A stretch of 55,322 nucleotides of DNA from Candidatus Amesbacteria bacterium (GTDB lineage: Bacteria; Patescibacteriota; Microgenomatia; CAZETR01; Amesbacteraceae): positions 1 through 55,322 of the forward strand of contig DAHXMV010000006.1 of NCBI GenBank assembly GCA_027371535.1, written 5' to 3'. Positions 16,462 to 49,162 of this stretch are shown piece after piece. Below the pieces are notes generated by a model. It was not told the DNA's origin. It saw only the letters and a list, made by a program, of their open reading frames with translations, and did no database searches. The position numbers and the translations under genes were made by a program. The stretch's first letter is position 1. Every line of letters starts with the position of its first letter.

Positions 16462-17133
16462 ATGGCTGTGAAAAGAATCAGGACCAAAAAAACGGTTTTA
16501 CCAGAACCAATGGAAGTTACGGAAACACCACCGGAAGTTCAAGAAGCTCCCAAAAAGAAAGTCAGCGGGTGGGTGATTGGAGTTATCCTGGCAGTAATAC
16601 TGGTAGGGTTTTTCTGGTACAAAACAAATTCCTGGCCGATTGTGGCGATGGTAGGCATGAGACCGATTACAAGATTTGAAGTAGATCAGGCTTTATTCAA
16701 GCAGGGAGGTAAGACACAGGTTGAAGATATAATTACGCAGACTTTAATTGAAAACGAACTGAAGAAAAATAATATAAACATCAGCAGCGCGGAAGTTGAA
16801 AGTAAAATAAATGATATAAAAGCCCAGCTGGGAAAAACTACCAAGATTGAGGATGTGCTGGCCCAGAGAGGCATGACCATGGATGACTTTAAAAAACAAC
16901 TGGCTTTGCAGATGGGCATAGAACAATTGTTGAAGAATAAAGTGACAGTAACCGACCAGGAAATTGCAGACTATATTACGCAGAATAAACAGTATATGAG
17001 CTCGGCTACCCCAGAAGCCCAGAAAGCCGAAGCGACACAGGCAGTGCAAATGAACAAGCTGCAGACTGAAGTAAATAACTGGATAACCCAGTTAAGGAAT
17101 GCCAGCAAAATCTGGAGAGCTCCGGGGGTTTAA
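16462..17133 (+). CDS. SurA N-terminal domain / PrsA-like foldase (no parvulin core)
   Basis: TM helix followed by IVAMVGMRPITRFEV...ISSAEVE...VTVTDQEIADY...WITQLRNASKI. Confidence 0.8.
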   Translation: MAVKRIRTKKTVLPEPMEVTETPPEVQEAPKKKVSGWVIGVILAVILVGFFWYKTNSWPIVAMVGMRPITRFEVDQALFKQGGKTQVEDIITQTLIENELKKNNINISSAEVESKINDIKAQLGKTTKIEDVLAQRGMTMDDFKKQLALQMGIEQLLKNKVTVTDQEIADYITQNKQYMSSATPEAQKAEATQAVQMNKLQTEVNNWITQLRNASKIWRAPGV

Positions 17134-19298
17134 GACAATTTCAGAGAGTAACGTTCGCGGGAAGAGCGGAGAATTTTGTCAAGATTCTGATTAGATGATT
17201 TGTGCGGAGGCAGAGTGGTAGCCAGAAACGGCGGCGAAACCGCCCCGTCGATGGTCATTTTGACGGCAATCTGGTGTTTTTGCAGGGAAACCAGATTGGC
17301 GGCGGTAAACGCCCCGCCAAATTCGGCTTCCATGACCCGGGCATCTTCGGAGCCCAGGACAAAACAGACGGTGGTGCCGGCGTTGCCGAAAATGGCCTTT
17401 TGGATGGGTTCGGTAATCTGGGCGATATACTGGTTGGCCAGAATCAGGCCGAGCTTAAATTTGCGGGCCTCGGAAAGAATTTTAATAAAGCTTTCGGTGG
17501 CGAAATTCTGAAACTCATCGACGTAGAGGAAAAATTCACGCCGGGCATCTTTTGGCTGGTCCACCCGGTTCATGGCGGCCAGCTGCAGCTTGGTGATAAA
17601 CATGGCACCCAGAAGAGCCGAATTATCCTCCCCCAATTTACCCTGGGACAGGTTGGCAATTAAGATTTTGCCCTGATTTAGAATCTGATCCAGGTCGATG
17701 GATGAAGCCGAATGGGAAATCAGATTATGAATCAGGGGGGAATTGACGAACTGGCCGACTTTATTCAGGATACTGGAAATCTGCTCCGCGCGGGTCTTTT
17801 CGTCCAATTTATCGTATTCGTTTTTCCAGAAGGAAATCAGCTGATCGTTTTTAATCCGGGAATAAATAGTCTTTCTGAATGCGGAATCGGTGAGCATTTT
17901 AATGACATCGGGCAGGGTGGAGCCGGGAATCTGGGTCAGCGTCAATAAAGTATTGCGCAAAATGTATTCCAGACGGGGGCCCCAGGAATGTCCGTAGAGT
18001 TTATGGAAAATGGCCACGATGCCGGAGGTAACCAGCTCCGACTGGTCGGGATTGGCCACTTCCAGAATATTTAAGGAAATGGGGTGCTCCTTGTCCGCCG
18101 GATTGAAATAAACCACATCGTTGATGCGGTGGGAAGGCACATAATTTAACAAGGCTTCGGCGCTGTCGCCATGGGGATCGATGAAGGCTACTCCCCTGCC
18201 CTTTTTAAAATCGTCGACGGCCATATTTTCCAGCAAGGTGGATTTGCCGGTGCCGGACTTACCCAGGATATACATATGTCGTAAGCGGTCTTCGGTTTTA
18301 ATGCCGAAATTGAGCTGCTGGTTGTGAAAGGTGGTATTGGCAAAGAAGTTGATATCACGGTTGGGATCGGGGGCGTTTTCGGCAGGTTTTGTGTAAACCG
18401 GCAGGTTTTCCGGGGCTTCGGAGAAGGAAGCGGAGACGGACCAGGCAACGTTGGGGATTTTGGTGTAGATGCCGGGAAGATGCCAAAGGGATGATAATTC
18501 CATGACATTTAAGACCGTAGGAGGCACCAGGAGGCTTTTGAAGGGTTTACGGCCCATAATACAACCAAGGAGAGTACTTTTATCCCAGGGAAGGATTTGA
18601 GCAGCCTGGAGGCTGTTGCCGTCGGGGCGGTTTAAAACGGAAATAGCTCCCCGCAAGTCGTAAAGCAGGCGCTGACTGGTGGCGGCAAAGTGAATGCTGA
18701 CACCGACTAACGGGTAGGACAATTTGTCTTCGACGATCTTTTTTTGGGGAATGGGCGGGTCTTTGACCAGATGCCCGGCTTCGTCGTAATGCTGGGTGGG
18801 CTGGATATAGGTATAGGCTTTTCTGACAAGGGATCTGGCAGCCGGGGTCAGCACAAACTGGACCAGGATCCGGTCATCAGGACCGGCTTTACTGAGGACG
18901 CCCATCAAGGGCAGCATGGGGTCGACTTCCTTGTAATCGGCATAATCCCTCAACGGATAAAAAGCGGCAAAGGACTGGCGGATGAGCATGGTATACGGCC
19001 TGAAATTCCAGGTGGCCAGATAATCTTTGATTTCGGACATGACTACGTCGGGATAGGTGGCCAGAAGCTGGGACTGGACAAAGGTGGTCAGGTGGTCGGG
19101 AAAGACGATGGCAAAGACGACCTGGCCGTTGACGATACTCACCTCCAGAGAAATATAAACAGGCTCAATGTGGGATAAACGGCCCAAAAAGTCATCGGCT
19201 TTGGTGATTTTGGCCAGGGAGGCGAGAACCTGGGACATCTGTTCGGGGGTGTTGTCCGATTCACGGGGAACCCTCAATGAAAGGACTTTAAGAGCCAT
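17130..19298 (-). CDS. VirD4/TrwB/HerA-like P-loop ATPase (T4SS DNA-binding domain family)
   Basis: RHMYILGKSGTGKS Walker A, FIDPHGD, LYVDEFQNF Walker B, SEARKF...LANQY. Confidence 0.9.
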   Translation of the reverse strand: MALKVLSLRVPRESDNTPEQMSQVLASLAKITKADDFLGRLSHIEPVYISLEVSIVNGQVVFAIVFPDHLTTFVQSQLLATYPDVVMSEIKDYLATWNFRPYTMLIRQSFAAFYPLRDYADYKEVDPMLPLMGVLSKAGPDDRILVQFVLTPAARSLVRKAYTYIQPTQHYDEAGHLVKDPPIPQKKIVEDKLSYPLVGVSIHFAATSQRLLYDLRGAISVLNRPDGNSLQAAQILPWDKSTLLGCIMGRKPFKSLLVPPTVLNVMELSSLWHLPGIYTKIPNVAWSVSASFSEAPENLPVYTKPAENAPDPNRDINFFANTTFHNQQLNFGIKTEDRLRHMYILGKSGTGKSTLLENMAVDDFKKGRGVAFIDPHGDSAEALLNYVPSHRINDVVYFNPADKEHPISLNILEVANPDQSELVTSGIVAIFHKLYGHSWGPRLEYILRNTLLTLTQIPGSTLPDVIKMLTDSAFRKTIYSRIKNDQLISFWKNEYDKLDEKTRAEQISSILNKVGQFVNSPLIHNLISHSASSIDLDQILNQGKILIANLSQGKLGEDNSALLGAMFITKLQLAAMNRVDQPKDARREFFLYVDEFQNFATESFIKILSEARKFKLGLILANQYIAQITEPIQKAIFGNAGTTVCFVLGSEDARVMEAEFGGAFTAANLVSLQKHQIAVKMTIDGAVSPPFLATTLPPHKSSNQNLDKILRSSRERYSLKLS

Positions 19299-19424: not shown

Positions 19425-19860
19425 GACTTTAAGTTTAACTTCAAAAGCGAAGATATTAACTTAGTAAGTCTTTCTAGTTTTACTAGCACTAAATCTAGCA
19501 CTTTAAAAACAGAGAGAAAAGAGAGTATTCTATTACCTGAAATTTGCGTGGCGTATCGAGTCCCGCCGGCTACGGCTTTTGTCGTTGTGCTAGGCGACAG
19601 GGGCTTTAAATCAATAAGACCGACGGGATTCAATACGTCACGTAAATTTTGGGAGAGAGTTTTTTAGGGATTATTACAATAACCCATCAGGGTTATTGAT
19701 AAATATTGGTAGAAACGGGGACGCGCTTTTTTTATTACCCAGGAGTTCATGCCGGACGGCAATCTTGGATGTCCTAAAACTTATTTAGGGATTGACTGAA
19801 ATCACCATAGTGATTACAGGACCTAGAAAAAGATTAGGAAATAAAAAACGGAGATAAGAA
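19425..19860 (+). ncRNA. Highly structured 5' leader / candidate ncRNA domain
   Basis: 30-bp stem 19540-19569/19620-19649 (3 G-U, 2 C-A), capped by the G-U-rich hairpin 19575-19604. Further hairpins at 19425-19470, 19677-19698, 19739-19768, 19772-19790 and 19800-19815. Confidence 0.6.
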
Positions 19861-19862
19861 AA

Positions 19863-20648
19863 ATGAAGACTAAGAAGTTTGTTTTGTTGATGGCTTTGGT
19901 TATAGCCCTTTCGAGCGCATTTGCCCTCCCAGCGGCTATTAATCATTTGCCAGGTATTGTGCAAACCCCTATCGCCAACGTTATAAACGTTGTCGCAAAC
20001 GCCTGTTCTATGAACTGTACATCTTGGGATGGTACAGCTTCCTGGGGCGCGGGCGATTATCGCATGATGTTGGATGGTAACTCAGTTTGGAGTGGGACGT
20101 TGACAGACAATGAAAAGAAAGAAGGAACGTTCACTTTGAACTGTGGTTGGCACGAATGGTCATGGGAAATGAAGGTAAAGGATAAAGAAGGAAATGAGAA
20201 ATGGGAGAGTAAGGCCGGTGGAAAATTTGAATGCAAGTGCGCGTCAGCTACGCCGACAAACACAATGCCTCCTACCGAGACTTTACCCCCTACCTCAACC
20301 TCTACTACTAAACCTTCCATTACCCCGTCCTTAACAAGCTCACCAACAATCACTTTAACCTTTACTCCAACCTTAACGGTTACTCCATCAATCACCGCTA
20401 CACCTACCAACACAAGCACTGCTACACCAACACTACCTGGACCGACCCCTGTATCTACCACACCTGCGCCCACCACTGTGGTTACTACTGTTGTAGTTCC
20501 TACTACCCCCGTGGTTACCACTCCGGCGCCGACGACTCCTCCACATCCCCGAATCACCCCAAACCCTGGCTCCAGTAATGGTGCAAGTGACCAACCAAAG
20601 AATATATTGGATTGGCTCAGGTTCTTTTGGAACTTGATTTTCGGATAA
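19863..20648 (+). CDS. Secreted protein: signal peptide, small Trp/Cys-rich domain, long Pro/Thr linker, amphipathic C-terminal helix
   Basis: GGAG SD at 19850-19853. MKTKKFVLLMALVIALSSAFA signal, TPT repeats, ends ILDWLRFFWNLIFG. Confidence 0.85.
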   Translation: MKTKKFVLLMALVIALSSAFALPAAINHLPGIVQTPIANVINVVANACSMNCTSWDGTASWGAGDYRMMLDGNSVWSGTLTDNEKKEGTFTLNCGWHEWSWEMKVKDKEGNEKWESKAGGKFECKCASATPTNTMPPTETLPPTSTSTTKPSITPSLTSSPTITLTFTPTLTVTPSITATPTNTSTATPTLPGPTPVSTTPAPTTVVTTVVVPTTPVVTTPAPTTPPHPRITPNPGSSNGASDQPKNILDWLRFFWNLIFG

Positions 20649-20660
20649 AACCTATCTAGA

Positions 20661-20997
20661 CCACGACCGGAGGGCATAACCCTACCTAGCACTTCCCAAA
20701 CGGGAAACTGCCCTCCGGTCTGGATGAATAACTTTCTTTCTCTCCCTACGTGACGCAAGTCATTAGGACGATACCTAGAACTTTTAGGTATTTTGCAGGT
20801 AACATTCGCTGTTATTTTTGCGGATTGCCTGATGTTTTATGGTATTAAGAGGGAGATGTGTGTTTTGTTTTGTGTGTTTTGTTGATTTTGGGATTTTTCT
20901 GGGGAATTAGCTTTTTTTGCAATTATTGATTTTTGATCATTTTTTTAAACCCCCCCAGCCCAATCAGCAACAACCCGCATTACAGCACCATCTCCCT
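20661..20997 (+). ncRNA. Highly structured 3' trailer
   Basis: Perfect 12-bp stem 20665-20676/20709-20720, GCAA-tetraloop hairpin 20745-20767, hairpin 20771-20791, long imperfect hairpin 20850-20997. Confidence 0.55.
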
Positions 20998-21077
20998 AAG
21001 TTTTTTACAGATGAAGTCTGTACTGATGAGGCGGCCCCACTACGCTGAAGCTACGCGGGGTAAACCGAAAAAACTTA
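20997..21077 (+). ncRNA. Type III hammerhead ribozyme candidate
   Basis: Stem III taagtttt(20997-21004)/aaaactta(21070-21077). NUH=UUU at 21003-21005. Stem I tacag(21006-10)/ctgta(21018-22). CUGAUGA core 21023-21029. G10.1-C11.1 closing stem II (21030/21066). GAAA 21067-21070. Confidence 0.75.
21035..21064. repeat. REP-like miniature palindromic element inside hammerhead stem II
   Basis: ccccactacgctgaagctacgcggggtaaa is an imperfect palindrome with two GTAG motifs on the minus strand and resembles 23636-23674. Confidence 0.65.
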
Positions 21078-21168
21078 ACAATAAAGTTAACTTATACAAA
21101 ATATAAATATTTTGTATATCCATGAGTTTTAAAGCAGAACTCATGGCTATAGGTTATAATAAACGACC

Positions 21169-23430
21169 ATGAATAATGTTGAACACGGACAATACCAATA
21201 TTTAAAGCGGCAGGAAAAACTGACCGCGGTTCCGCAGGTCGAGGACAAATACTCTGACGAGGCTAAAAAGGCCTGGATGAGAAAGGCGGCTGCACAACAT
21301 AAACTGGAGATGTTTTCAGATGTAAATGTGGACCCGGACAAAAAGACTGTAAGTGCCGAAGAGATGATGAACGCCACCCTGGAAGGTTTAAAAGAAGCTG
21401 AAATTAAGAGACAACATTCTAATACCGATAAAGGGAAAGCCTATTGGAAGAATGTAGAAAGAGGCCTGAAAATCAAAAAGACATGGCTGGAAAAAAGCAT
21501 GCCCAAGAACCAATTTACTAATGAAGAACTAAGGCAACCTTTAATTGTAGAAACCGAAAAACAAACAGAAACCTTATTACTGCCTAAAAGTATTCCGGAA
21601 CCGATAGCTGAAAATAAACCTGTTTTGACCAGATTCCAGATGTTAGTTAAGGGAATCAGGCAAAAAGGCGACGAAATATTGCAAAAATTAAGAGTAGAAC
21701 CGGATATTGTTGACAGCGATTCTGTATTAGAAAGCTGGAGAGCAAGTGAAATTTCAGAAAAGAAACAAAAGAAAAACATTTTAAAGGAAATTGCTTATGG
21801 TACTGGTATTGTCACTACGATTGCAACTGCGGCATTAGGTATTTATGCGTGGTTAAACAGAAAATCCGCAGTATCTCCAGTTGAGATTGCCAAAGCTTTA
21901 AATACTCCTATACCATTGGAAACAACCATAAATACTCCTGTCCCGGCAAATACGATTACGGTGACCCCTTCTGTGATACCATCTGCCACGGAGACCGTAA
22001 CGCCAAAGCCATCTGTGACTCCCGAGAAGCCCACTAATTCTTATGAAATATCAGTTGACGGTAAAACTATTGATCTGACCAAATCACTAGCTATAGTTTT
22101 TTCCCAGAATCTGTTAAATGCTGCAAGTGTAAAATCTCAGATTCCTATATTTACCCAACCTTTTGTTATCAATACAGAAGCCGATTATTTGAAAGCGCCT
22201 AATACAATGGGGGTGAATGAAAAATCAATAAATACAAACCACTGGAAAGAATATCCGTGGCAGGCTTCCGTGATGAAATCCTTTTACAACAGTGATTTTG
22301 TAATGAGTCTGGAGAGCGGGCATTTAAATCAAACAGTTCCAAAAACAATGAATTCCGATTGGCAGAAAGCCTTTAATGAAACTTTTCCCAAGGCCAGTTT
22401 GGATAAACCGCAAGCATTTGATATGCCGGCCCAGCCTTTGGTTGATCTGGCCAATACACTACCAAACCATATTGAAAGAATATCAGTAAATGGAAAATCG
22501 AGCGATATGACTGTATATGAATTACCAAACCAGCAATTTAAAATACAAGTGGACGGAACTCCGTGGACTATAAAAAGTATGAGAAAAGTAAGTCTGGATG
22601 TGTGGAATCAAACCTGCGGGAATACCGATAAAGGCTGGTATTGTGCGTTGGATCAGGTAAATATTCCGCAACCTGCAGAGACCACAATCACTATTCCCAC
22701 ATGCATGGATTTTAAAAACGGTGAATACGCAAACCGATTAATAGTTGAAATAACTCCGGATAAATCAATAAGTCTCGACAAGTTTGCACCTGAAGTTATA
22801 AATGATCCTATTTTTAATAAAGGAGTGCGTCAGGCAGTGTTAATTAACGGCTACCAATTTACCGGCAATAAAAGTGGCTTTGTAAATTATTTGAAAAGTT
22901 CAAATCTGTTTGATGAATGGGATAAGCTGGTAATAGATAATTTAATTACTAATAATACAAATAATTTTCCTGATGGGAAAATGACCGGTATTCAGTGTGT
23001 AGGTTGGGCCGGATTGAGAACCGGACCAGAAAGCCCGATGTATTTTGGCGGAGATATAAAGGCAGACGGTACTAAAATAAAAGGACCCGGAGAGGCTGTT
23101 CCGGATAGCGTTAAGAAAGCTGCAAATCAAAATTATTTGTACACGGAGACTGAAGGTAACAGAAAATGGATAACGGGAAATGTTGATCTGCACATGGTGA
23201 AAAAGGGAGATGTAATTGTGGAATGGAGCGATGACCCCAATTTTTCAGCCGGTCATATTATCTATGTTGAAAATATTATTTCTGATAGCAAAGGCAATGT
23301 GATGGTAATTTTATCCGAAGCTAATAATAAAAATAATCCCGGTCAGGTGTCTTATTCCGTAATTAGTGGAATTTCGTTAGAAAGTTCCCTGAATAATAAG
23401 AGTTTGGCTTTGGTGACTAATCGTGGATAA
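21169..23430 (+). CDS. Single-pass membrane protein with sortase-like and CHAP-like domains
   Basis: TM near aa 207-228 and a P/T linker. SGH (H385)...TITIPTC (C512)...NRLIV (R523). GIQCVGW (C610)...AGHIIYVE (H696)...LSEAN (E717). Confidence 0.7.
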   Translation: MNNVEHGQYQYLKRQEKLTAVPQVEDKYSDEAKKAWMRKAAAQHKLEMFSDVNVDPDKKTVSAEEMMNATLEGLKEAEIKRQHSNTDKGKAYWKNVERGLKIKKTWLEKSMPKNQFTNEELRQPLIVETEKQTETLLLPKSIPEPIAENKPVLTRFQMLVKGIRQKGDEILQKLRVEPDIVDSDSVLESWRASEISEKKQKKNILKEIAYGTGIVTTIATAALGIYAWLNRKSAVSPVEIAKALNTPIPLETTINTPVPANTITVTPSVIPSATETVTPKPSVTPEKPTNSYEISVDGKTIDLTKSLAIVFSQNLLNAASVKSQIPIFTQPFVINTEADYLKAPNTMGVNEKSINTNHWKEYPWQASVMKSFYNSDFVMSLESGHLNQTVPKTMNSDWQKAFNETFPKASLDKPQAFDMPAQPLVDLANTLPNHIERISVNGKSSDMTVYELPNQQFKIQVDGTPWTIKSMRKVSLDVWNQTCGNTDKGWYCALDQVNIPQPAETTITIPTCMDFKNGEYANRLIVEITPDKSISLDKFAPEVINDPIFNKGVRQAVLINGYQFTGNKSGFVNYLKSSNLFDEWDKLVIDNLITNNTNNFPDGKMTGIQCVGWAGLRTGPESPMYFGGDIKADGTKIKGPGEAVPDSVKKAANQNYLYTETEGNRKWITGNVDLHMVKKGDVIVEWSDDPNFSAGHIIYVENIISDSKGNVMVILSEANNKNNPGQVSYSVISGISLESSLNNKSLALVTNRG

Positions 23431-23464
23431 ATAATTAATTGGGAAGTAAAATTGGAAGTAAATC

Positions 23465-23536
23465 GCCCTTGTAGCTCAATGGACAGAGCAAATCCCTTCT
23501 AAGGATAAGATGGAGGTTCGATTCCCCCCAGGGGCA
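23465..23536 (+). tRNA. tRNA-Arg(TCT)
   Basis: Acceptor gcccttg/caggggc, anticodon arm atcc-cttctaa-ggat, GGTTCGATTCC T arm. Confidence 0.93.
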
Positions 23537-23542
23537 CAGTTA

Positions 23543-23693
23543 TGTAGCTCAATGCGGAGCAATCCCGACTAAGTCGGGAAAGATATCAGAAGATAAATCT
23601 TCCTCTATCCCTCACATAGTTCGTGATGAAGGTTCCCCTCCTTCGTCCCTCTACGCGGGACTACGGCGGGCAAGAATTCCCCCCAGGAGCACA
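23543..23693 (+). pseudogene. Degenerate tRNA-Arg(TCT) copy interrupted by palindromic insertions
   Basis: tgtagctcaatg (23543-54), gatgaaggttc (23625-35) and aattccccccaggagcaca (23675-93) match the adjacent tRNA in order. Inserts at 23563-79 and 23636-74. Confidence 0.8.
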
Positions 23694-23711
23694 AGTTAGG
23701 TGAAGCTAAAA

Positions 23712-24008
23712 CTAGGAAATATTTAAAACTTTTTCTATCCGATCAGTCCGTTTTGTGACCGACATCAGATCATTATCCAGGGAATTGATGATATAGGACA
23801 TATTTTTCTCCAATTTTTGAAGAGATCTTTTTATGGGTGCTAATTCTTTTTGTATGAGTATGGGGACCTCAGCTTGAATGGCATTGTTTACAAGAGGCGG
23901 AACCTGCGTCTGAATGGCATGATTAATCAATGGCGGAACCTGGGTTTGAATAGAATTAGAAATTATATTTGAAATGTCTGATAAGTCAGTTTTTGACAAC
24001 ATTAACAA
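23712..24008 (-). CDS. Small coiled-coil protein with three 12-aa tandem repeats
   Basis: IQTQVPPLINHA/IQTQVPPLVNNA/IQAEVPILIQKE repeats, ends KRTDRIEKVLNI. Confidence 0.7.
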   Translation of the reverse strand: MLMLSKTDLSDISNIISNSIQTQVPPLINHAIQTQVPPLVNNAIQAEVPILIQKELAPIKRSLQKLEKNMSYIINSLDNDLMSVTKRTDRIEKVLNIS

Positions 24009-24057
24009 AACCTAATCCGTGTAAACTTGGCTGTCAATAAGGTAAAATAGGCATGCC

Positions 24058-24129
24058 GGGTTCGTAGCTCAATGGCAGAGCAGCTCCCTCTTAAGGAGAC
24101 GGTTGTGGGTTCGACTCCCACCGGACCCA
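24058..24129 (+). tRNA. tRNA-Lys(CTT)
   Basis: Acceptor gggttcg/cggaccc, anticodon arm ctcc-ctcttaa-ggag, GGTTCGACTCC T arm. Confidence 0.95.
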
Positions 24130-24135
24130 CAGCAT

Positions 24136-24918
24136 ATGCCAGGTATATATTTTGAAACAGATATTGCTAAATCCAGGGAAACTGCGGCTAAACGGCTGGA
24201 AAATGCCGGCGATGTGATTTTGAATAAAGAAGAAGTGGAAGCTAAACTTAAGGATATTCTGGATCAGAATAAAGGCGTAGTTTTCCTGGGTAATCATTAT
24301 CATTATATAAACGGCCCGAAAGACGCGGTGATGATTGCCGGACTGAAAGAGGTCGCCGATCTGAGATTTTATATGCCGGTGACTGACTATTTATTATTGT
24401 TGGCAAGAATCGCCAATTTTGTACTGAATACCCACATTGAAACTTCCGGGATTGTTACACCGGCAATAGCCCGGAGAAAAGGGATTTTGGGTTTGATTTA
24501 CGGTAGGAGGCAAGGCGAGGGGGTCATTAAATATATGCGAAAAACCAGAGAAATATTATCCCCGTTCGGAGATAATAAACCAGGTATTATGGTTGCCTAC
24601 CCTAAATTTAGCAGAGGGGACGGGAAGATGGGACAGCTGGACCCCGAAGAAAAGCAGATGATAGAAGGACTGGCCTCTTCTTTAAAAAATAACAAGCCTT
24701 ATTTCTGGCCTTATGCCTCTATTGCACTGGACAATGATGGAAGAATTATTATCCCCAAGAATATGAAGGAATTCAAAAACTACCGTATTATATATATGTT
24801 CGGAGAACCAATTAATTTTAATGATTTACCGGATATGAAACATAACGGAAGATATGAAGGGACGGCCAAACTGATCCATGAGAAGATTAAACAAAAGCTT
24901 CCGGAAGGCTACAGATAG
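24136..24918 (+). CDS. Divergent PlsC-like acyltransferase-fold protein
   Basis: VVFLGNHYHYING (block I-like), MVAYPKFSR (FPEGTR-like), YMFGEPI. Start moved to the ATG downstream of tRNA-Lys. Confidence 0.55.
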   Translation: MPGIYFETDIAKSRETAAKRLENAGDVILNKEEVEAKLKDILDQNKGVVFLGNHYHYINGPKDAVMIAGLKEVADLRFYMPVTDYLLLLARIANFVLNTHIETSGIVTPAIARRKGILGLIYGRRQGEGVIKYMRKTREILSPFGDNKPGIMVAYPKFSRGDGKMGQLDPEEKQMIEGLASSLKNNKPYFWPYASIALDNDGRIIIPKNMKEFKNYRIIYMFGEPINFNDLPDMKHNGRYEGTAKLIHEKIKQKLPEGYR

Positions 24919-24935
24919 AGTAAAATTAACGGTAT

Positions 24936-25028
24936 TGCGGGGTCGTCTTAGCCGAACGAAGCGAGGCGGAAACGGGAGAGCGTAAGCTCGACCATCATGG
25001 TAGGACCTTAAAATATATCGTCTAATGG
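24936..25028 (+). pseudogene. Degenerate 5'-half copies of tRNA-Gln with palindromic insertion
   Basis: tgcggggtcgtct (24936-48), a 48-bp insert, then atggtaggac (24997-25006). A second fragment tcgtctaatgg lies at 25018-28. Confidence 0.8.
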
Positions 25029-25046
25029 GACGTAAAAATACAGGAC

Positions 25047-25118
25047 TGCGGGGTCGTCTAATGGTAGGACTCCAGACTTTGGATCTGGCTATTCTTGGTT
25101 CGAATCCAAGCCCCGCAG
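25047..25118 (+). tRNA. tRNA-Gln(TTG)
   Basis: Acceptor tgcgggg/ccccgca, anticodon arm ccaga-ctttgga-tctgg, T arm cttgg-ttcgaat-ccaag. Confidence 0.96.
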
Positions 25119-25155
25119 CCGTGTATTTTTACTTAACTGTTCGCTTCACTCACTA

Positions 25156-25294
25156 AGGACTCCAGACTTTGGATATGGCTATTCCAGCTAATATGCGCTC
25201 AGGAGAACGAATCCTAGCCCCGCAGCCGATGAATTGACTTTGCCGTCCCGATGTAGCATCGGGACTAAGGACTCCCGAACGAATCCCAGCCCCG
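25156..25294 (+). pseudogene. Two degenerate 3'-portion copies of tRNA-Gln
   Basis: aggactccagactttggatatggctattc...cgaatcctagccccgcagccg (25156-25228) and aggactcc...cgaatcccagccccg (25268-25294), separated by the palindrome 25245-25265. Confidence 0.8.
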
Positions 25295-25327
25295 GATTCT
25301 GAACGAAAAATATATTATTGATATAAT

Positions 25328-48511: not shown

Positions 48512-49162
48512 CTAAAGCTTTGATACCCAAAGTTCAAGCGCAAAGCCCAAATTAAAAGGCGATGCCGAAGTTTTCTGACGGTAATCGATATCCAGAAGCC
48601 CCAGATATGAGGTTTTTAAAATATCCAGAGAAAAATCAGCTGACTGCCGTGCAAGTTTGGCAGATTGCCAGGACGGAAAATTACCCTTCCCCAGTTTAAA
48701 CAGCAAAAGTTTTCTGATCTGGCCGACCGTAAGGGCAAAAATCTGTTCCGGTGCGGTGTATTGCAGGGATTTTGCCAAAGATTCCCGGGAAAAACTATCT
48801 AAAAACTGGTAAACATATTTGGGTAAATCAAAAACCCTGGACACTGGTGAAGAAAATGATTTAATGTGTAAAGAGACATTTTTTGATTCCCATATATAAA
48901 TTTCACAATCCTGATGAGTTACCAGGTAATCAAGAATAAGTTTTTTTTCCCGACCGGGACGGGATGAAAAGAAATTTTCTATAAATACGGCAGGAGTTTC
49001 TTGAAAAAGAGACATGGTTTGAAGAGACAGGAGAAGGTCGGTTAAAGTCAGTTTACCGCCGTCCAGAGCAATAATCTGACGGCCCAGGGATATGGTCTTG
49101 GTTCTGGTTTCAATAAAGTAATTACGGGAGGCAATCTGATCGTCACCGTGAATAACGATCAT
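48512..49162 (-). CDS. holA: Short DNA polymerase III delta subunit-like protein
   Basis: MIVIHGDD, QTMSLF and LLDIDYRQKTS motifs. Only 216 aa. Confidence 0.65.
   Translation of the reverse strand: MIVIHGDDQIASRNYFIETRTKTISLGRQIIALDGGKLTLTDLLLSLQTMSLFQETPAVFIENFFSSRPGREKKLILDYLVTHQDCEIYIWESKNVSLHIKSFSSPVSRVFDLPKYVYQFLDSFSRESLAKSLQYTAPEQIFALTVGQIRKLLLFKLGKGNFPSWQSAKLARQSADFSLDILKTSYLGLLDIDYRQKTSASPFNLGFALELWVSKL

Follow-up and report, generated by a model that had tools for sequence, protein, structure and literature searches.

The window analysed here is a 55,322-nucleotide stretch of a Candidatus Amesbacteria genome (assembly GCA_027371535.1, contig DAHXMV010000006.1). Positions 20997-21077 of its forward strand are, on the evidence of homologues, covariation and synteny, a genuine type III hammerhead ribozyme. 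The motif belongs to a conserved, under-annotated hammerhead subfamily that is widespread in its class, and the tip of its stem II is occupied by a foreign hairpin of 26 nucleotides (nt), recognised by its sequence as one of a widely dispersed family. The analysed genome (G000) comprised 1.02 Mb in 43 contigs and was 90.5% complete. It was compared with a family set of 27 genomes and with class sets of 151 sampled genomes (hammerhead model) and 401 genomes (26-mer).

The type III hammerhead and its homologues

The original prediction had read this segment as a type III hammerhead composed of an 8-base-pair (bp) stem III, the triplet UUU, a 5-6-bp stem I, CUGAUGA, a G-C-closed stem II and GAAA. 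Every one of these elements was found in its place and in type III order, and the identity was borne out by homologues, covariation and synteny. The order along the motif was TAAGTTTT, T, TACAGA-TGAAG-TCTGTA, CTGATGA, GG-CGG, the 26-nt hairpin, TAAA-CC, GAA and AAAACTTA. The features are given below in window positions; A1 is an alignment of 11 hammerhead sequences from the RF00008 matches of the family, and A2 is a further alignment.

20997-21077 (+): type III hammerhead ribozyme, all core elements in order
20997-21004 (+): stem III 5' strand, ending in U16.1 at 21004; 8 bp with 21070-21077; aligned as stem III by Rfam and by our own models; covaries in homologues
21005/21006 (+): predicted scissile bond, H17 being U21005; placed by its alignment position in A1 and A2
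21006-21022 (+): stem I hairpin of 6 bp (UACAGA/UCUGUA, 21006-21011 with 21017-21022), loop UGAAG
21023-21029 (+): core CUGAUGA (C3-A9); CUGAUGAG identical in 11 of 11 rows of A1 and in most members of A2
21030-21034 (+): stem II 5' side, G10.1 and G10.2, then CGG of the internal loop; pairs G21030-C21066 and G21031-C21065
21035-21060 (+): 26-nt imperfect palindrome at the stem II tip, copy of a dispersed mini-element; single intact copy in the genome
21061-21066 (+): UAAA, a 3' flank typical of the element (flank statistics among the 82 copies listed), then CC of stem II
21067-21077 (+): core GAA (G12-A14, 21067-21069), then the stem III 3' strand from A15.1 at 21070; CGAAA kept in nearly all members of A1 and A2

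The triplet is UUU, with U16.1 at 21004 and H17 at U21005, and the cleavage site originally predicted after U21005 agrees in position with the alignments. As had also been claimed, only two pairs of stem II (G21030-C21066 and G21031-C21065) precede the insert; they are followed by the internal loop CGG/UAAA and then by the hairpin 21035-21060, and their probability was 0.41 in the 81-nt ensemble. The minimum-energy fold of the 81 nt contained all three stems (-20.6 kcal/mol, z -1.85), and 9 of 200 shuffles folded equally well. Type III topology, in which loops cap stems I and II and stem III is open, was present in this fold and in the covariance-model alignment (positions 1-54). This topology is shared with RF00008 (Rfam Hammerhead_3), as are CUGAUGA, GAA, A15.1-U16.1 (A21070-U21004), an H17 that is not G, and a stem II closed by G10.1-C11.1 (G21030-C21066). 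Unlike RF00008, stem II here consists of two proximal pairs and a 26-nt foreign hairpin. Among 30 distinct relatives, U-A at 15.1/16.1 was found in 28 and G-C at 10.1/11.1 in 28. A few members of A2 varied in the core (CUGACGA, CUGAAGA or UUGAUGA).

The genome was scanned with our own descriptor, which required a strict hammerhead core and allowed G-U pairs, and 60 block-wise dinucleotide shuffles of the genome served as the control. Three matches were obtained in 1.02 Mb, and only 20997-21077 had long stems (7/2/8 pairs). The shuffled genomes gave a mean of 1.6 matches each; 2 matches in total reached 5/2/5 pairs and none reached 6/2/6. RF00008 aligned the motif over the full 54 positions of the model, treating 33 nt of stem II as an insertion. 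The score was 20.7 bits, where the gathering score is 48.5 (E 0.017 for 106 nt and 0.039 for the genome). A scan of the whole window with Rfam at gathering scores returned 7 tRNAs only. Taken alone, the descriptor and RF00008 left the case open, given how many windows such scans read. A second model, built from 31 relatives with the window excluded and on an alignment made with our first model, scored the motif at 44.6 bits (E 2.3e-11), the next match in the genome lying at 14.5 bits. The search with hammerhead models that the original prediction had proposed yielded an end-to-end RF00008 alignment and a strong family-model score, and fell short of the RF00008 threshold.

It is extremely improbable that the descriptor matched the motif by chance, in an A/T-rich spacer containing an inverted repeat. 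The sub-threshold Rfam score would fit such a match, as would the U and A runs, which make stem III easy to get; a relaxed descriptor gave a second match in the window (48879-48973) and 17 in the genome, and rare chance matches are to be expected somewhere when many windows are scanned. However, none of the 60 shuffled genomes contained stems of at least 6/2/6, the independent family model returned an E of 2.3e-11, and the syntenic orthologues showed compensatory changes.

The second relaxed match (48879-48973, plus strand, stems 4/3/5, triplet UUU) overlapped an open reading frame (ORF) on the minus strand. It was not reported by the second family model at E<=10 and was taken as a chance match.

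RF00008 matches at E<=1 were obtained in 9 of the 27 family genomes, nine of them scoring 23-40 bits (best 40), and none of the 27 genomes reached the gathering threshold. With 20.7 bits here and 23-40 bits in relatives, all below 48.5, annotation based on the RF00008 threshold would miss the whole subfamily. The first model, built from the 11 sequences of A1, gave matches at E<=0.01 in 20 of the 151 sampled class genomes, a count that includes G000 and, as further training genomes, G015, G013 and G006; all seven genomes of one family were positive. A sub-threshold hammerhead subfamily is therefore common in a large, poorly known bacterial group and is missed by standard annotation. Weak model matches inside ORFs (L043-L045) were excluded from the context analysis. 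Several relatives (G020, G003, G137 and G079) carried 2-5 hammerhead copies spaced 1-3.5 kb apart. The stem I of the window was also present in the G020 copies and in many metagenome hammerheads, mostly with the loop UGUGUA. A metagenome scan for stem I plus core retrieved 34 places on 31 contigs, about 26 of which were complete hammerheads by eye. An insert-free orthologue, which the original prediction had proposed looking for, was sought among these 34 places, and none had the flank of this locus.

In the 11-sequence alignment, CUGAUGAG, CGAAA and U16.1 were invariant. For stems I and III, 92.8% of cells were paired, compared with 64.7% in column shuffles and 33-44% when the strands were slid; 11 of the 14 pairs were doubly changed. 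The 31 sequences without the window gave 91.3% of paired cells, whereas sliding gave 26-45%; double changes were seen in 13 of 14 pairs. All covariation sequences were gathered with structure-aware models and are biased towards pairing, a caveat to these percentages.

Hammerheads were found in the same block, from the orthologue of an ATPase (64-77% identity) to a tRNA-Arg/Lys/Gln cluster, in G016, G015, G006 and G013, which represent four other genera. The motif is conserved at one chromosomal position in these relatives. In three of these four genomes the hammerhead is oriented towards the tRNAs, as in the window. In G016 and G006 the hammerhead is followed by the tRNA-Arg/Lys/Gln cluster; in G015, tRNA-Lys and tRNA-Gln were called and the tRNA-Arg stretch was matched by DNA only. 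A spacing of 105 nt in G006 suggests that the tRNA cluster may share the primary transcript. The G016 copy has the upstream flank CACCATCTCC (the 3' end of the leader) in common with the window, but its stem I is different and fully compensated.

The strong family matches were all intergenic, with co-directional ORFs on both sides. The upstream ORF ended 40-500 nt before the hammerhead, and the downstream ORF started from -1 to about 200 nt after it, often 8-30 nt. Intergenic position, co-direction with neighbour genes of varying identity, and multiple spaced copies in relatives are also features of the bacterial hammerheads described in the part of Perreault et al. (2011; PMC3088659) consulted. 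That part of the paper places bacterial hammerheads beside genes in prophage regions, and describes hammerheads that cut long transcripts into gene-length pieces. Unlike those prophage hammerheads, the block studied here is syntenic across five genera and had no phage or plasmid match (megablast of 19800-23600 against phage and plasmid collections), although no search was aimed at integrases. With its conserved position before an ORF and a tRNA cluster, in no recognisable prophage, the locus offers a fixed setting for studying the role of bacterial hammerheads, such as leader removal or transcript separation. A literature search found no description of hammerheads in the candidate phyla radiation, Patescibacteria or Microgenomates; it did not cover the supplements of PMC3088659, which possibly list related metagenome hammerheads.

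Predicted activity and proposed mechanism

On the structural model, this copy is probably an active ribozyme, and probably a slower one than its relatives. Slower cleavage would be expected because only two proximal pairs of stem II are left and both loops are off the family consensus. Continued cleavage is likely, since the hairpin is tolerated at helix tips of other functional RNAs. Neither the triplet nor the length of stem II was exceptional: H17 was U, C or A in the family, with two other members reading UUU, and ten other members had an inner hairpin past a proximal helix of 4-5 bp. In the part of PMC3088659 consulted, natural hammerheads are reported often to have a 2-bp stem II and still to cleave, and tandem bacterial hammerheads to cleave polycistronic RNA in vitro.

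Several observations weigh against an active ribozyme. The 2-bp proximal stem II was unique among 35 distinct family sequences. Loop I reads UGAAG, compared with the common UGUGUA, and loop II has been replaced by the insert. In relatives, a UGUGUA-type loop I stood opposite a GAAA or AAAA loop II, or else a long, bulged stem II went with a short loop I, and this copy fitted neither pattern; with loop I changed and loop II replaced, the loop-loop contact of the relatives has probably been lost here. Six U and six A allow stem III to extend over H17 and N1.1, with probabilities of 0.85 and 0.45. With more flanking sequence, stems II and III dropped to predicted probabilities of 0-0.4, in part through possible pairing between the insert's G-run and the C-rich leader; these answers were unstable and were not relied on.

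A possible but rather doubtful alternative is that the motif is a hammerhead by descent that was recently crippled. The insert and the changed loop I would spoil folding or the tertiary contact, and the core would be intact because the event was recent. The unique 2-bp proximal stem II and the instability of the predicted stems in longer transcripts speak for this, and by eye both loops differ from the consensus of 26 of the 34 metagenome places. The RF00008 score points the same way (20.7 bits against 23-40 for nine other full-length intergenic matches, a few partial or doubtful matches being lower), and the element is identical over 28 nt to a copy in another genus, which fits a young insertion. 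Yet nothing has been lost from the invariant core positions, G10.1-C11.1, A15.1-U16.1 or the two long stems, and RNase P RNA and a group I intron tolerate the element. The activity of natural hammerheads with a 2-bp stem II, as far as the consulted part of PMC3088659 goes, also argues against crippling. The insert makes the ribozyme a natural insertion experiment, and comparison with and without the hairpin would measure the cost of the element to its host RNA.

The mechanism proposed for an active, slower ribozyme starts from what was observed, namely the motif, its homology, covariation and synteny, and the dispersal of the insert; from these we infer transcription, cleavage, its rate and the purpose of the cut. 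The ribozyme would be transcribed within a longer RNA and would fold into a three-stem junction. Self-cleavage between U21005 and U21006 would then leave a 2',3'-cyclic phosphate on the released upstream RNA. On the downstream RNA, which carries the ORF of 753 amino acids (aa) and possibly the tRNAs, it would leave a 5'-hydroxyl with the stem I hairpin next to it. The ribozyme would in this way act as a transcript-separating or leader-removing element, either parting the message of the 261-aa ORF from the downstream unit or taking off a leader of roughly 60-80 nt. Its stem II tip has acquired one copy of the dispersed 26-nt hairpin. Forming the 3' end of the upstream unit and freeing the downstream RNA would be one cut seen from two sides, so that only RNA data could separate them. 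Among sequencing runs searched for this stretch, no RNA run covered the locus; one DNA run contained it and may be its source, and an RNA run from the same study gave no match. Insulators such as RiboJ are synthetic-biology ribozymes engineered from plant satellite RNA. By analogy with them, the proposed 5'-leader hammerhead would remove upstream RNA and leave a hairpin with a 5'-hydroxyl, the natural role here being a suggested one.

The 26-nt hairpin at the tip of stem II

The 26-mer (21035-21060) occurred as a single intact copy in the genome when searched at <=6 substitutions, with an nhmmer profile and with blastn-short. At <=3 mismatches it was found in 27 of the 401 class genomes, at 31 places and with 1-3 copies per genome, and the reversed control gave 0. 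A degenerate pattern matched at least 119 stretches in genome contigs, whose titles span many groups of the candidate phyla radiation; 82 distinct copies were analysed among the matches listed. In 20 aligned copies, 13 of the 26 positions were invariant and 8 more varied in only 1-2 copies. The hairpin has conserved mismatches and is not a perfect stem. The element consists of the 26-nt core and about 4 nt of 3' flank, in which CAAG, CAGG, CAAA and TAAA dominate (82 copies, among the matches listed). A 28-nt identical copy was found in another genus (contig C7 of G005), before a T-box-like leader (26.7 bits).

In that contig the T-box-like leader (L011, 2037-2161) was below threshold and had the element at its 5' end; the ORF downstream resembled a class I aminoacyl-tRNA synthetase by eye. 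A possible decayed copy was noted in G000 on contig C38 (78109-78142; 79% over 34 nt, E 0.003) in the blastn-short and nhmmer follow-up.

Several copies lay in structured RNAs. The RNase P RNA of one genome has the element as the hairpin immediately 5' of its conserved GAGGAAAGUCC, and a group I intron (84.7 bits) in another genome has it as a peripheral hairpin, showing that RNAs which have to function tolerate it at their helix tips. It abutted a tRNA 3' end in two genomes. Targeting of hairpin loops was assessed from the flanks: cross-flank pairs numbered 6.67, and 5.35 in re-paired controls (p 0.015), with no significant difference in energy. A preference of the element for hairpin tips is suggested by single cases, and the overall comparison supports it weakly. 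In the RNase P RNA (L070, 1191-1544, minus strand, 59.8 bits) the element was the first hairpin, and an element-like CCUUCGCUAAAGCUACGGCGAGG lay near the 3' end.

Other copies lay in protein genes. Eight of the first 20 loci were inside open frames of 283-642 aa, all in sense orientation, and seven of these eight frames matched a Pfam family (SHMT, UvrD helicase, ribosomal protein L3, YebC, a GDP-mannose-dehydratase-type enzyme, an S1-domain protein and leucyl-tRNA synthetase). When the eight frames were compared with their G000 orthologues, four showed a gap exactly at the element (7, 12, 14 and 17 aa). Of the others, one had no gap, one gave an alignment beginning within or after the element, and two had no match. 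The G000 UvrD orthologue (contig C22, about 90247-90300), with no gap at the element site, had a vaguely similar peptide there. Among the 82 copies listed, 49 lay outside long frames; the 33 within them comprised 25 sense and 8 antisense copies.

The original prediction had described the insert as a REP-like miniature mobile element of the same family as palindromes in nearby tRNA remnants. A miniature mobile element is supported in substance, since the 26-mer occurs at unrelated loci and G000 orthologues exist without it; the likeness to repetitive extragenic palindromic (REP) sequences is not, nor was the link to the tRNA remnants recovered, no copy being found there by substitution search (<=6), nhmmer or blastn-short. 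By eye, 23645-23675 loosely resembles the element if indels are admitted. REP sequences and bacterial interspersed mosaic elements (BIMEs) are repetitive, extragenic and tied to Y1 (RAYT) transposases. The element is, like them, a short, imperfect palindrome with G+C ends, and falls in the REP size range of 20-40 nt. Unlike them, it is present here as a single intact copy and is not restricted to extragenic sites, many copies elsewhere lying inside genes. No Y1 transposase was found: PF01797 gave 0 matches in G000 (90.5% complete), and the control matched in 6 of 14 known genomes. The insert was accordingly rejected as a REP.

A closer comparison, and the nearest known one, is with the Rickettsia palindromic elements, which the consulted part of PMC10969869 describes as about 100-150 bp long, present in tens of copies per genome and entering genes in frame. 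As described there, they resemble the 26-nt element, which also lies inside unrelated housekeeping genes with the frame unbroken and in RNA genes. They differ from it in that it measures 26-30 nt, has one to few copies per genome and is spread superphylum-wide with almost no sequence change. A literature search found no such palindromic element described for the candidate phyla radiation.

It is quite unlikely that the hairpin is a selected module, for example a protein-binding one, that makes cleavage conditional and has been recruited by several structured RNAs. Such a role would account for the near-invariance of the 26-mer over very distant lineages (13 of 26 positions never vary in 20 copies), for its conserved mismatches in place of a perfect stem, and for its helix-tip sites in RNase P RNA, a group I intron, the T-box-like leader and this ribozyme. 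However, 33 of the 82 copies among the matches listed are in long open frames, where a role as an RNA module is unlikely, and no partner protein is known. No other hammerhead with the element was found in the 20 loci, whose flanks were read by eye, or in 79 further loci among the matches listed.

The foreign hairpin of a dispersed family can be given a broader, tentative reading that we regard as less than even in probability. The 26-nt hairpin (CCCCACTWCGCTRAAGCTWCGCGGGG plus a CARG or TAAA tail) may be an undescribed, near-invariant mobile module across the candidate phyla radiation. It would sit at helix tips of catalytic and regulatory RNAs and, mostly in sense, in surface loops of housekeeping proteins. 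Its invariance would imply dedicated copying or recognising machinery or an RNA-level function, and it may be a switch or handle on the hammerhead. If this is true, the element stands out among mobile sequences for its unusually small size and unusual conservation, and it has no known engine. The motif GCTCGCAATGA recurred directly 5' of the element or near it in several unrelated genomes (L117, L120, L122 and L155), which hints at further small repeats travelling with the element.

The locus and neighbouring genes

The features around the ribozyme were as follows.

17130-19298 (-): 722-aa P-loop ATPase with HerA/TrwB-type domains (Pfam), the syntenic anchor
19863-20648 (+): upstream co-directional ORF of 261 aa, with a hydrophobic N-terminus and rich in Thr/Pro; ends 349 nt before the ribozyme
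20947-20996 (+): C-rich, G-poor leader directly upstream of the ribozyme (seven-locus alignment A3)
21169-23430 (+): downstream co-directional ORF of 753 aa; begins 92 nt past the ribozyme
23465-25120 (+): cluster of tRNA-Arg(TCT), tRNA-Lys(CTT) and tRNA-Gln(TTG), downstream on the strand of the ribozyme

No Pfam or PHROG family was matched by the flanking ORFs of 261 and 753 aa. In G016, the ORF that follows the hammerhead was weakly similar to the 753-aa ORF (23% over 180 aa, E 6e-4). By eye, the 753-aa protein has one hydrophobic segment and a C-terminal Cys...His pattern with some likeness to that of a CHAP-type cell-wall hydrolase. A DNA search in 40 relatives gave matches only for the tRNA-Arg stretch and the 28-nt element. 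The C-rich, G-poor leader and the motif TTTGCAATTA about 80 nt upstream were common to the orthologues; TTTGCAATTA is not established as a promoter, and a promoter and terminator scan of 20400-21400 gave counts no higher than in shuffles.

The neighbours of the relatives' hammerheads varied (GT2, QueA, GT1, ATP-grasp, PAP2 and SPFH), ruling out a single partner gene. A general link to tRNAs was likewise rejected, only the syntenic locus of this family having tRNAs within 1.5 kb.

The spacer from the ribozyme to the start codon of the 753-aa ORF contains two palindromes (21093-21151): one is TATACAAAATAT..ATATTTTGTATA, and the other has arms at 21115-21128 and 21138-21151. Past the intact tRNAs, partial duplicates of the tRNA-Arg 3' end (23676-23693), the tRNA-Gln 3' end (25208-25228 and 25280-25300) and the tRNA-Gln anticodon region (25156-25184) were seen. 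The tRNA-end duplicates in 23540-23693 and 25150-25300 resemble integration scars, a hint of past integration at these tRNAs.

In one further family (f25; L032, L049, L054 and L038), only 8-13 nt separated the hammerhead from the start of a conserved 289-aa family 2 glycosyltransferase gene. These hammerheads have a stem III 3' strand that ends in GGAA and could therefore hold the ribosome-binding site, which cleavage of the hammerhead might unmask.

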